Shown here piece by piece: positions 1,545 through 6,062 of a DNA stretch of 16,120 nt; position 1 is the first letter of the stretch, and each line of letters opens with the position of its first letter. The position numbers and the translations under genes are program-made. Under the pieces are notes generated by a model. That model was not told the origin of the DNA. It ran no database searches and was given only the letters and a program-made list of their open reading frames with translations. The DNA comes from an uncultured Thermoplasmata archaeon (GTDB taxonomy: Archaea; Thermoplasmatota; Thermoplasmata; Halarchaeoplasmatales; Halarchaeoplasmataceae). The stretch is taken from contig CAYNQI010000006.1 in the NCBI GenBank assembly GCA_964399335.1, positions 34,005-50,124 of the forward strand. The letters are read 5' to 3'.

Positions 1545-1637
1545 TTACCTACAATTAGAATCCCCACATACAGGACATAACCAACAACCCTCGGTAGGTA
1601 CCATCTCATTTTCACATGCTTCACATTCCTTACTCAT
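1545..1637 (-). CDS. 30-aa Cys-rich zinc-finger microprotein MSKECEACENEMVPTEGCWLCPVCGDSNCR (alternative ATG at 1640)
   Basis: CxxC-x9-CxxCxxC-x4-C pattern. GGTGA Shine-Dalgarno at 1642-1646, TTAAAT TATA-like element at 1668-1673, upstream box at 1686-1705. Below the ORF-track size cutoff. Confidence 0.8.
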   Translation of the reverse strand: MSKECEACENEMVPTEGCWLCPVCGDSNCR

Positions 1638-1685
1638 CATCTCACCGTATTGACATCCGAAGAACAGATTTAACTATTCACAGCA

Positions 1686-1705
1686 GGGAGATCAGTGAAA
1701 GTGAA
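1686..1705 (-). promoter_or_regulatory. Putative DNA-damage-responsive upstream element (TTCACTTTCAC-N4-CTCCC) for the microprotein gene
   Basis: Plus strand GGGAG-atca-GTGAAAGTGAA, 16/20 identical to 4617-4636. Core resembles the Halobacterium UV motif TTTCACTTTCA and contains the Sulfolobus ANTTTC element. Confidence 0.65.
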
Positions 1706-1714
1706 CGATAAAGA

Positions 1715-3853
1715 TCAAGCCCGTTTCATCTCTCTTTCAACCTGCTTCTCATCATATCCAAAAGGAGACAACATCTCATCAACCACCCGGTAAAAGTATT
1801 TTGAATAAAAATCTCTATCATAATGTTCCACATCACTGCCTTCGATCTTGACTTTCTCCCGGTAATGTTTACTTTTCTGATCAGTGACTATATATCTTAC
1901 GTATTCTCCGGGATGGACAGGGATATCTTCATCTTGGTATTGAAGTAGAGCGGCTTTAGTTTCTATAAGATTGCTGTACTCCTCTGCCTTCTTGGAAACT
2001 GTCTTTGAGAAGTACAGTTCTTTAAAATCGACTTCTTCCCTTTTCAATTGTATGAAATCTTTTTTTATTAAATCCATTGCTTCTTCAACTTTTTCTTCCA
2101 ATTCATCTAGGTTCCGAGCATCTTTCATGCTTTCCAACACTTTCCTCTGGACTTTTTTAAAGAATTTCGGAGTATCTTTACGCCTAGCATGTATACCTCG
2201 CATCTCGGTTTCTCCCTCTAAAACTCCATAGTACCGGTTAGCCACTCCCAAACCATCCGATTTACTGGGAAGAAAAACGATCCATCTATAAACCCCTTCT
2301 TTTTCGAGTAAAATACTTGTTTCATTTTCCACATCTTCGATCAATACATCTAATTTCTCTCTCTCACCCTTCAACCAAAGAGAATCTACTATCCCATGGA
2401 TCAACTTGTAGCCCATCTCTTGAGCTATATCCGCGGCTGTTATCAGTATATCTCTTCCGTAAGCGGTAACACTTTCATGAACTTCTATATTACTGAATCT
2501 AGCCTTTTTATAACCCGTATAACCAAAACACGTAACTAACAACCACTTCAGCGTATCGGCCCGTTTAGAAAAGCGTTCCCCCTTCATACTTTTGTATCTC
2601 TGCCGACGCTGGATCAGTGGTGAAACTACCTTCGGTATGAGTCCACGGCGTCGATCACATACTTTATAACCCAACTCCGGAACCTTATGAAACTCCCCAC
2701 AGTCACATCCAATGGTCTCAGGTGACAAATTGTACTTATCTATTATAGATGGATACATACTGGCGAAATCTAATTTAAGGACGTTGAAATGGACCCCCAT
2801 CTCAGGTTCAAAAATATGTCCACCTCTATCAGCTTTCAACAACTGCTCGGCACTTTTAAACCTTTCAGATATATTCCTTTTCCACGGTACTAGGTAACCA
2901 TCATCCATGGCACATTCAAGTTCCATGGCATCGATGGCGGTTCCGGGGCTCCTCCTGGCGAGTTTCTGGAGAGGGATCTTAGAAAGTCTAGATATCTCTA
3001 TGAGCCCATCAAGACCTCCCTCACGATACAGGAATGAATTCTGCACATCGATATGGACCCTACCTTTCAAGTGGTGAGAAGGGGGTTTGTAGATGACTCT
3101 ACCGTAGGAAACATGGGATGATCCTTCCTTACGCGCATGAATAGACCGTTCCCGACCTAGTTTCAAATCTTCGTTATTCAACCTAGCCCGATGAAATAAA
3201 TAAGGTATCAAAAAGGGATCTCCGTTGGAAGTCAATATCACGTCCGGATCTTTGATCTCTATCTCCCTGTTGAGTTCTTTGATCATCTCTTTTTCACTCC
3301 CAACCATAACTGAGTCTCCCAACTTTATTGAAGATATCTGGTCATCCATGGCCGGGATACCTTTCGTTTCGAAATCCACTGAAAGTGATGCCTCCCGAAG
3401 AGATGGAAGAGAATAATTCACATCGGTGTCTTTCTCTAACTCTATCCATCCATCGTTCTTATCGACCAGTGAAAAAGGTCGTATGCCCTTTTCTATAAGG
3501 TACCTCTGTCCCAACGGGATATCCACATTATAGAACTCATAATTATCATATCCTTCAAAAAAATGCAGAGCATCCGCTTGTTTTCTTGGATCGAAGACAT
3601 GACCTGGAGATATCTCTAAAACTTCCTTTTCTACTTTATCATATATGGTGGTTTTTTTAGAAACGTAACTCGTTTCGAAGTCCATATCTTGATAGAATTC
3701 TTCGATCTCTCCGTAGTTTCCGTCCGAAGCTTCGACGTAAAAAAGTGGGTTATAATCTTCGAAGACCTTGTAGGTTCTATCAATAGTCTTCATCCAGAGA
3801 ACCATCTTTTTCCTTTTCAGGTCCGGATAAATATCCAATATCCATCCTTTCAT
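1715..3853 (-). CDS. polB2: Family B DNA polymerase, archaeal PolB2 (Dpo2) group
   Basis: Motif A DFASMYPSII, motif B KWLLVTCFGY, motif C HGIVDS (PolB2-type, in place of YGDTDS), degenerate exonuclease motifs, and linkage to iRadA and the small helical gene. Likely start is the ATG at 3853 (MKGWILDIY), not the track's TTG at 3871. Confidence 0.9.
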   Translation of the reverse strand: MKGWILDIYPDLKRKKMVLWMKTIDRTYKVFEDYNPLFYVEASDGNYGEIEEFYQDMDFETSYVSKKTTIYDKVEKEVLEISPGHVFDPRKQADALHFFEGYDNYEFYNVDIPLGQRYLIEKGIRPFSLVDKNDGWIELEKDTDVNYSLPSLREASLSVDFETKGIPAMDDQISSIKLGDSVMVGSEKEMIKELNREIEIKDPDVILTSNGDPFLIPYLFHRARLNNEDLKLGRERSIHARKEGSSHVSYGRVIYKPPSHHLKGRVHIDVQNSFLYREGGLDGLIEISRLSKIPLQKLARRSPGTAIDAMELECAMDDGYLVPWKRNISERFKSAEQLLKADRGGHIFEPEMGVHFNVLKLDFASMYPSIIDKYNLSPETIGCDCGEFHKVPELGYKVCDRRRGLIPKVVSPLIQRRQRYKSMKGERFSKRADTLKWLLVTCFGYTGYKKARFSNIEVHESVTAYGRDILITAADIAQEMGYKLIHGIVDSLWLKGEREKLDVLIEDVENETSILLEKEGVYRWIVFLPSKSDGLGVANRYYGVLEGETEMRGIHARRKDTPKFFKKVQRKVLESMKDARNLDELEEKVEEAMDLIKKDFIQLKREEVDFKELYFSKTVSKKAEEYSNLIETKAALLQYQDEDIPVHPGEYVRYIVTDQKSKHYREKVKIEGSDVEHYDRDFYSKYFYRVVDEMLSPFGYDEKQVEREMKRA

Positions 3854-4094
3854 CTTCCACCTTCCTTTCAAGTCTAGCTAAGGTCTTTTGATGTTCGAGT
3901 AATATCGAGATAAATAATGATTCCATAGGATCTGGATTGGCTTGATATTGGGCGGCGGAACCGTGTTTCTTTGCGTTGAGCATGAGTTCTTCGAAATACT
4001 TCCTTTCCTCTTTTCTAAGAGCCCTTTTGAACTTCGACCACTCTGAGATTATTTTATCGAGTTCCTCCCTGTAAGTTGGCACACTTTTTCCCAT
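3780..4094 (-). CDS. Small alpha-helical PolB2-associated protein (arCOG07300-like)
   Basis: MGKSVPTYREELDKIISEWSKFKRALRKEERKYFEELM pattern, position between iRadA and polB2, and GGAGGTGA SD 5 nt before the ATG at 4094. Confidence 0.8.
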   Translation of the reverse strand: MGKSVPTYREELDKIISEWSKFKRALRKEERKYFEELMLNAKKHGSAAQYQANPDPMESLFISILLEHQKTLARLERKVEDERMDIGYLSGPEKEKDGSLDEDY

Positions 4095-4572
4095 ATATCT
4101 CACCTCCTAATTTAGATTCAAAAATCTCTACATAGGGATCGGCCACTGCACAGTATATATCACGGTTCAAAACCAATTTTCTCAACTTCTTTACACACCT
4201 AGCTCGAAGCCATGTCCCTTCTTCACCGTCTAGATCTTCGAGAAATCTACTGCTTAAATCGATCAAACCCAGGAATATGATGCTATCATCATTGTTAACG
4301 ATCTCCTCTGCCTTATCCACCATATCTCTTAGTTGATAGGCTGTAAATCCTCTGCAGAGTAAGATCTTTGTCAATATCTCATCTTCTTCCAAACCCAATT
4401 TTTTACAGATCCTAACCATCCAGTATGGATCGATCTTGGCACTTCCATCTATTATAAGGGCTCTCTTATCCGAACCACTCACAACCTCTACAGCAAGTGT
4501 GCTTATGAAACGGTGGTTGCGGGTCTGGAATGTCTTGATTTCTCCCTTCTCTATAAATGGATCAAGTTTCAT
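4054..4572 (-). CDS. Inactivated RadA/RecA-like protein (iRadA) of the PolB2 operon
   Basis: RecA-core-like segments (ALIIDGSAKIDPY; ILTKILLCRGFTAYQL) with no GxxGxGKT Walker A; first gene of the polB2 cluster. Confidence 0.8.
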   Translation of the reverse strand: MKLDPFIEKGEIKTFQTRNHRFISTLAVEVVSGSDKRALIIDGSAKIDPYWMVRICKKLGLEEDEILTKILLCRGFTAYQLRDMVDKAEEIVNNDDSIIFLGLIDLSSRFLEDLDGEEGTWLRARCVKKLRKLVLNRDIYCAVADPYVEIFESKLGGEIYGKKCANLQGGTR

Positions 4573-4596: not shown

Positions 4597-4636
4597 GTAT
4601 AAGAAGAGTCTCGTAGGGGAGGATGGTGAAAGTGAA
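4597..4636 (-). promoter_or_regulatory. Promoter of the iRadA operon: TATA-like TTATAC (4597-4602) plus upstream box TTCACTTTCAC-N4-CTCCC (4617-4636)
   Basis: TATA-like element 25-30 nt before the ATG at 4572. ATTCACTTTCA (4627-4637) is a 10/11 match to TTTCACTTTCA. Same geometry as at 1668-1705. Confidence 0.65.
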
Positions 4637-5829: not shown

Positions 5830-6062
5830 GAGCAACATGACGGCCATAGCGGTGGGGTAACACCTGGTCTCATCCCGAACCCAGAAGTTAAGCCCACCCG
5901 CGTTCTCTGTTGTACTGTGGTGCGCGAGCCCACGGGAAGCCTAGGTCCTTCGCGGACCCCTGGATCGATGGCTTAGGTTAGGAGCCTGGCTCTCTTCGGG
6001 GAGTAAGGTAAACCTAACTGTTTGAAGGCTACTTTCGACCCTTGGCCCGCTGTCAGTTGCTC
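5830..6062 (+). rRNA. rrf: 5S rRNA gene with a ~100-nt insertion (~5941-6040) and an extended helix I
   Basis: Canonical archaeal 5S elements: GACGGCCATAGCGG, CCCGAAC, GAAGTTAAGCCC, GTACTG...GCGAG...GGGAA. The helix I 3' strand GCTGTCAGTTGCTC lies at 6049-6062, about 100 nt later than normal. Exact mature ends are uncertain. Confidence 0.93.

Follow-up and report, generated by a model that had tools for sequence, protein, structure and literature searches.

Beginning 74 nt past the stop codon of polB2, and on the same strand, a very short Cys-rich open reading frame (orf) lies in a 16,120-nucleotide stretch of DNA from an uncultured Thermoplasmata archaeon (the window, by which we mean this whole stretch). 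The locus raises the question of what so small a protein does, and whether its partner is to be sought in PolB2, in ribonucleotide reductase (RNR), or elsewhere. The preliminary description of the window had recorded an orf with six Cys residues, a Shine-Dalgarno sequence, and a TATA-like element, all of which are borne out by a re-reading of the sequence; it also likened the product to the C-terminal finger of the class II RNR, NrdJ, and tied it to polB2. The host family consists of halophilic Thermoplasmata (Ca. Saliniplasma, Ca. Halarchaeoplasma). The positions of the features are collected in Table 1.

Table 1. Positions of the features discussed in the text, numbered from the first nucleotide of the window unless a contig is named.
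Feature	Position	Strand	Details
Microprotein gene	1545..1640	minus	31 codons from the ATG at 1640 or 30 from the ATG at 1637; sense part 1548-1640; stop codon 1545-1547
GGTGAG, Shine-Dalgarno-like	1641..1646	minus	Immediately 5' of the microprotein ATGs
TATA-like element TTAAAT	1668..1673	minus	About 30 nt 5' of the microprotein start
Putative repair-regulon box of the microprotein	1686..1705	minus	11-mer TTCACTTTCAC at 1695-1705, then C-run at 1686-1691; PWM score 23.1
iRadA-PPB2-PolB2 operon	1715..4572	minus	iRadA 4054-4572; PPB2-like 107-aa frame 3780-4103; PolB2 1715-3871
Sister box before iRadA-PPB2-PolB2	4616..4636	minus	Identical 11-mer at 4626-4636; TATA-like TTATAC at 4597-4602; PWM score 23.6
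5S rRNA gene	5836..5955	plus	Complete and uninterrupted; Rfam model positions 1-120, 81 bits
Boxed repair/replication loci elsewhere in the same genome	Contigs C3, C34/C39, C45, C2, C171 (L081, L080, L079, L078, L076)		From the PWM scan

The frame is bounded by stop codons and stands alone, with a predicted product of 30-31 amino acids in which the Cys residues are spaced CxxC-x9-CxxCxxC-x4-C, the third Cys belonging to an EGC motif and the last to CG-x-S-x-C. Three observations place it beyond chance. A six-frame translation of the entire 1.57-Mb assembly contains the six-Cys pattern a single time; conserved homologs, on whose existence the earlier interpretation depended, are present as short frames in 57 of the 60 related genomes searched; and comparison with the two nearest orthologs gives dN/dS values of 0.06 and 0.14, with many synonymous changes. 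We therefore consider it confirmed, on comparative grounds, that this is a real gene under purifying selection. Homologs of 29-42 residues are found in nearly every sampled genus of the host family, and in an alignment of 21 of them the six Cys residues are invariant together with E17, G18, and G26, while the remaining positions vary.

The spacing of the GGTGAG sequence favors the second of the two ATGs (1637) as the start, and GTGA or GGTGAT is present at the same place in several orthologs (L005, L013, L015, and L022). The TATA-like element occupies the same position in all orthologous promoters; the distance from it to the ATG is about 27 nt in most other genera, which suggests a leaderless transcript. 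A non-coding or structured RNA was also considered for the locus and dropped, as no Rfam family matches the microprotein region and its predicted fold is no better than those of shuffled sequences (z = -0.22).

Similar frames are not confined to the host family. When 151 Thermoplasmata genomes were searched with a profile, NrdJ tails proved to be widespread, and short stand-alone frames with the full finger turned up in many other families; several complete single-contig genomes carry the gene. Twenty stand-alone loci outside the training set were retrieved; two of these, both in genome G138 (L090 and L091), resemble copies of the 3' end of nrdJ, lack the promoter box described below, and were set aside, leaving 18, of which 17 are from other Thermoplasmata families. 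Many of the short matches from a search of 1.84 billion proteins are C-terminal fragments of NrdJ, and that list was for this reason left out of the counts of stand-alone frames.

Two further observations concern free fingers elsewhere. Metagenome-assembled genomes of Dehalococcoidia / Chloroflexota (L054 and L063-L066) contain frames of 67-161 amino acids in which a Pro/Ala-rich leader precedes a six-Cys finger, with nrdJ absent within 4 kb, and free fingers may thus exist in bacteria too. On a 4.7-kb contig of a JGI metagenome (3300003631, record MetavP1; L190), a gene for an acidic, finger-ended protein of 53 residues adjoins a PD-(D/E)XK nuclease gene.

The likeness to the finger of class II RNR holds up when profiles are compared. 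An hhalign comparison of 21 microproteins with 17 NrdJ tails gives a probability of 99.2% and an E-value of 1.7e-19. The NCBIfam model NF006417 (B12-dependent RNR) is matched by all 21 microproteins at profile positions 732-758 of 759 (best E-value 3.1e-7), and no other family, generic zinc-ribbon models included, matches as many; the HVO_2753 model, which represents the generic CPxCG families, matches four of the 21, weakly and partially, with a best E-value of 0.0035. The spacing of the Cys residues is identical in the microproteins and in Thermoplasmata NrdJ tails. When the peptide is searched against related genomes, its weaker matches fall at the extreme end of long frames (700-1150 residues); these are class II RNR genes, and many contain an intein. 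On the strength of these comparisons, we regard the microprotein as a confirmed and specific homolog of the NrdJ C-terminal six-Cys finger.

For the window microprotein, Pfam contains no family at E ≤ 0.01, with generic ribbons appearing only below threshold, and a sequence search of the PDB finds generic zinc-ribbon or C2H2 knuckle matches, a full-length relative being absent. AlphaFold2 models the microprotein as a small zinc ribbon of three short strands (pLDDT 87.5); Foldseek matches this model in the PDB to generic zinc ribbons only, such as those of TFS/Rpb9 and Csl4, with E-values above 0.2, and every score against the ESM Atlas is below 0.9.

A purely structural zinc ribbon can be built with four Cys residues. 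The additional pair has an assigned role in the NrdJ of S. nassauensis, where Zn binding is attributed to Cys 1, 2, 4, and 5 and the role of a redox pair to Cys 3 and 6 (Loderer et al. 2017, PMC5704485), and re-reduction by TCEP needs all six (PMC5704485). Both members of the redox pair, by that assignment, are invariant in the microproteins. The microprotein thus shares with the NrdJ C-terminal finger (PMC5704485, PMC9669993) its spacing, the EGC / CG-x-S-x-C signature, profile homology, and a predicted ribbon fold, although S. nassauensis NrdJ has x5 before the last Cys where the microprotein has x4. It differs in being untethered to RNR and encoded by its own gene of 30-31 codons, with its own promoter, on a contig other than that of nrdJ; in having no counterpart of the IscU-like region of that domain in NrdJ, the cysteine-rich one; and in coexisting with an NrdJ that retains its own finger. 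The CPxCG zinc-finger micro-proteins (HVO_2753 and its family) are likewise very small, Cys-rich, ribbon-like archaeal proteins, but they have neither the additional pair of Cys residues nor a signature of the RNR type.

The linker adds a further distinction. At linker position 6, His is frequent in the stand-alone microproteins, and is also found in some host-family members, whereas NrdJ tails have Phe, Tyr, or Leu. A comparison of these signature residues is consistent with one old lineage of microproteins separate from the NrdJ tails.

One route to such a protein would be a split gene, in which NrdJ lost its finger and the microprotein replaces it. The preliminary description asked whether the NrdJ of this genome lacks the finger, and the answer comes from close relatives, the nrdJ of the genome itself being a fragment on a separate 1.8-kb contig. 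In two genomes of the same genus (G001 and G003) NrdJ keeps its own finger and the microprotein is encoded elsewhere, so the microprotein is not a replacement for a lost finger and a split gene is ruled out. Each of five relatives showed one RNR gene. In G001, G003, G005, G009, and G011, NrdJ has its own finger at the end and is encoded on another contig than the microprotein. The microprotein gene never adjoins nrdJ; in family f4 the distance is 21-25 kb. All microprotein-bearing genomes in which an NrdJ tail was examined also have a finger-bearing NrdJ, and in family f8, where none of ten genomes matches the NrdJ finger, the microprotein was likewise not found; this co-occurrence is confounded by shared ancestry.

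The closest known arrangement is that of split NrdJa+b (Pseudomonas type), in which NrdJb carries an IscU-like domain and the finger, in a cysteine-rich domain of 150-220 amino acids, and NrdJa is finger-less (PMC5704485). The common feature is a finger encoded apart from the catalytic chain; the microprotein is, in contrast, a bare finger of 29-42 residues, unlinked to nrdJ, in the company of a complete NrdJ, and is therefore not an NrdJb.

Many NrdJ proteins of this group are long. Those of the host genus (L003, on contig C196 of the genome itself) and of many relatives, where the frames are 1120-1150 amino acids long, contain an inserted segment of about 365 residues that bacterial NrdJ lacks, presumably an intein; an intein-free nrdJ of 750-800 residues is found in genus g2 and in several other families.

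The strongest indication of a functional context comes from the promoter. Only two copies of the 11-mer TTCACTTTCAC are present in the window, both on the minus strand, and each is followed by a C-run and then by a TATA-like element. One copy precedes the iRadA-PPB2-PolB2 operon; the other, which starts 9 nt past the polB2 stop, precedes the microprotein gene. The proposal that the microprotein has a promoter of its own is thereby upheld, with the addition that its box is common to the iRadA-PolB2 operon. The general layout of the box is a core ACTTTCA (sometimes ACTTTCG), a gap of 3-5 nt, and a run such as ACCCCTC, with the TATA element about 10 nt further on. Archaeal activators usually bind 5' of the TATA element, where the box sits.

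The box accompanies the microprotein gene. It is present 5' of the gene in all 21 family loci, regardless of the flanking genes, and in 15 of the 18 stand-alone loci outside the training set (14.6-29.5 bits), the three others having weaker variants. At the 15 boxed loci it lies 33-107 nt (most 45-75 nt) 5' of the likely start. The iRadA promoters of other genera show the same pattern in seven of nine readable cases, one of them from another family (f12), and those of L037 and L044 contain a degenerate copy that the pattern missed.

A weight matrix (PWM) built only from the sites of relatives was then run over the genome from which the window comes. It gives 33 matches above 15 bits, compared with 1-9 in shuffled genomes, where the maximum was 17-20. 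The top matches with an identifiable gene are at xseA (23.8), iRadA (23.6), the microprotein (23.1), top6B (22.8), mcm (22.4), and nurA (20.8), and further matches precede two TnpB-like small orfs, radA (18.4), and an AAA ATPase gene (17.6; contig C26). The radA box is at a fixed position, -53, in all sampled genera of the family and is recognizable in at least six other families, against a background of best scores in random 166-nt windows whose 99th percentile is 14.0; top6B has a box in some genera only. The promoters of nrdJ in five relatives were searched for the box and do not contain it, so that nrdJ is not visibly a member of the box regulon.

Three of these promoter groups deserve separate description. 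The nrdJ promoters L072-L074 (in G005, G009, and G011) share a TTCTTAA sequence, followed by a C-run in G005 and G009, about 10 nt before CTATRC; this element may be a separate, nrdJ-specific control site. The boxes at C1:31358 and C12:7635 (L082 and L083; 19.7 and 20.7 bits) precede short orfs that by eye resemble N-termini of TnpB/IS605-type genes; a Pfam search with the L082 orf found no family. The best box in the genome (29.2 bits), at C30:106-128 (L075), lies 128 nt from the contig end that it faces, and past it there is a hairpin-like inverted repeat and no long orf; the site may be the end of a repeated element, perhaps an IS end.

A related element is known from another archaeal class. 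In Halobacterium sp. NRC-1, four genes induced by UV-B (radA1, top6B, vng17, and vng280) have the motif TTTCACTTTCA 5' of their TATA box; a near match precedes a transposase gene, and nrdJ, its neighbor vng1642, and trxA2 are also induced (PMC2556686). The core is the same in both groups, as is its location 5' of the TATA element, some 50-60 nt from the start codon, and radA and top6B are members in both; the Thermoplasmata box differs in having one TTTCA unit and a conserved C-run, and no microprotein of this kind has been reported in the Halobacterium UV set (vng17 and vng280 aside). The boxes before the TnpB-like orfs echo the near match before the UV-induced transposase gene, npa. From the shared core, position, and members, and from the TnpB-like genes, we read the Thermoplasmata box as the same kind of repair-linked element as the Halobacterium UV motif. 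A boxed promoter of its own fits the idea that expression of the microprotein is linked to damage, with induction extrapolated from Halobacterium.

What the function may be is thus constrained on four sides: by descent from an RNR finger with all six Cys residues, by co-occurrence with an intact NrdJ, by a box shared with repair and replication genes, and by a lack of any conserved neighbor. We propose, with a probability of roughly 0.4, that the microprotein is a free NrdJ finger, linked to damage, that acts in trans and raises the supply of dNTPs. It would be an independently transcribed, free-standing paralog of the NrdJ terminal six-Cys zinc finger in which, by analogy with NrdJ, Cys 1, 2, 4, and 5 hold one Zn and Cys 3 and 6 form a redox-active pair. 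Through the common box, it would be made together with radA, iRadA-PPB2-PolB2, xseA, top6B, mcm, and nurA, probably after DNA damage. As a diffusible copy of the tail that NrdJ itself carries, it would act on NrdJ in trans, either bringing reducing equivalents to the active-site disulfide or relaying them from a reductant to the tethered tail, and the outcome would be more dNTP when repair synthesis requires it. That the microprotein binds zinc, is redox-active, is induced by damage, and targets NrdJ are inferences.

This proposal draws support from the homology to NrdJ tails, the retention of all six Cys residues, the shared box and the genome scan, and the co-occurrence with NrdJ, and, by analogy, from the Halobacterium precedent, where the motif at radA1 and top6B is accompanied by induction of nrdJ and trxA2. 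In addition, no thioredoxin or glutaredoxin tested by Loderer et al. reduces the NrdJ domain, and electron transfer between subunits is possible (PMC5704485), which leaves room for a new partner of NrdJ. Several observations stand against it. The nrdJ promoters of five relatives are without the box; the tethered finger is kept in all relatives checked, so that a free copy is not obviously needed; the microprotein never adjoins nrdJ, and its co-occurrence with NrdJ is confounded by ancestry; and the expectation of induction by damage is carried over from another archaeal class. When the complete C-terminal domain was expressed separately it failed to restore a truncated NrdJ, although that protein was poorly soluble (PMC5704485). 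Co-folding of the NrdJ of G024, with the finger removed (residues 1-715), and its own microprotein gave a median score of 0.28, the mark being 0.32, a result that we count neither for nor against the proposal.

Of the alternatives, the one that survives best is that the microprotein is a zinc-ribbon factor of the repair regulon directed at something other than NrdJ (RadA, NurA/HerA, MCM, Topo VI, or, as a transcription cofactor, the boxed promoters), with the likeness to the NrdJ tail a matter of descent only. The cofactor variant would be comparable in spirit to TFB3 of Sulfolobus, which is damage-induced and bears a Zn ribbon. Membership of the regulon is the best-supported functional fact about the microprotein, and nrdJ stands outside that regulon in five relatives; moreover, in its predicted fold the microprotein resembles ordinary zinc ribbons (TFS/Rpb9, Csl4), and its own signature, often with His at linker position 6, points to a lineage distinct from the NrdJ tails. 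Against this, the six Cys residues and the EGC / CG-x-S-x-C signature have been kept over class-level divergence, no genome examined has the gene without also having a finger-bearing NrdJ, and no neighbor or fusion indicates another partner. We consider a target other than NrdJ unlikely, if far from negligible.

The second alternative retains NrdJ as the target and supposes a dominant-negative action: the free finger would compete with the NrdJ tail for the active-site cleft or for reductant, and so damp dNTP synthesis, as a checkpoint-like brake, or adjust it while repair is under way. As the main variant of the NrdJ-directed reading, it shares the homology and co-occurrence evidence with the proposed supply of reducing equivalents. 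Competition is a frequent mode of action of small single-domain paralogs of larger proteins, and the yeast protein Sml1 indeed competes with the RNR C-terminal tail; the precedent runs the opposite way, however, since Sml1 is removed rather than induced upon damage. A plain blocker would not require both Cys residues of the redox pair, yet both are kept, and the box is held in common with repair genes that need dNTPs. The failure of the separately expressed domain to activate truncated NrdJ in vitro (PMC5704485) does speak for competition, but on balance we judge this action to be quite improbable.

There remains PolB2 itself. It is the last gene of an iRadA / PPB2-like / PolB2 operon of the kind described previously (PMC11791011), with Pfam recognizing DNA_pol_B in the 718-residue PolB2 and Rad51 in iRadA. 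The 107-aa PPB2-like frame (minus strand) probably starts at an internal MGKS, giving 104 residues, as this resembles the conserved MGRT N-terminus of PPB2 (PMC11791011). Searches with tblastn place PolB2 beside the microprotein in the genus of the window only (the window and G001, G002, and G003), while PolB2 orthologs are present in 34 of 35 other family genomes searched. At 12 PolB2 loci from other genera and families, iRadA, PPB2, and PolB2 are together with no Cys-rich orf alongside. In G016, the only retrieved locus with both, the microprotein and PolB2 are 11 kb apart, and elsewhere the microprotein is on other contigs; in other genera it lies between DUF4147/MOFRL and EamA transporter genes, or beside a gene for a polysaccharide-synthesis membrane protein. 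In G047, of another family, the microprotein and its box are present and the PolB2 query finds no match.

The tie to polB2 that had been drawn at the outset therefore stands as far as adjacency within the window genus and the shared box are concerned, and falls as a conserved co-location. A role as a zinc/redox cofactor subunit of the PolB2 mutasome, for which the same-strand position 74 nt 3' of polB2 in the window and three same-genus genomes and the common box might be cited, is unlikely in the extreme, being largely refuted by the 12 loci without a Cys-rich orf, the 11-kb separation in G016, and the absence of a PolB2 match in G047, and being superfluous to the published mutasome model (PolB2, iRadA, PPB2 trimer), in the account of which a zinc protein is unmentioned (PMC11791011). 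On the distribution of the genes, the link to PolB2 appears to be regulatory and genus-local, not structural, and the microprotein is probably a member of a DNA-repair regulon and not of the polB2 cluster.

In the literature that we searched, we found no description of an NrdJ finger that is bare and free-standing and has a box of the radA type in its promoter. To our knowledge the finger domain has so far been described only at the end of NrdJ, as a tethered tail, or within the larger NrdJb, and we know of no cellular reductant of the NrdJ tail found so far. The microprotein could be the missing electron carrier or amplifier for NrdJ re-reduction, a diffusible 30-residue finger, switched on with radA and repair genes, that couples the damage response to dNTP synthesis; we put this forward as a doubtful but specific possibility. 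The analysis corrects the idea of the microprotein as a PolB2 subunit, extends the Halobacterium UV promoter motif to the Thermoplasmata, and defines a small putative repair regulon of radA, the PolB2 mutasome, xseA, nurA, mcm, top6B, and the microprotein. A bare free finger found across a whole archaeal class is a concrete candidate for control of ribonucleotide reduction in trans.
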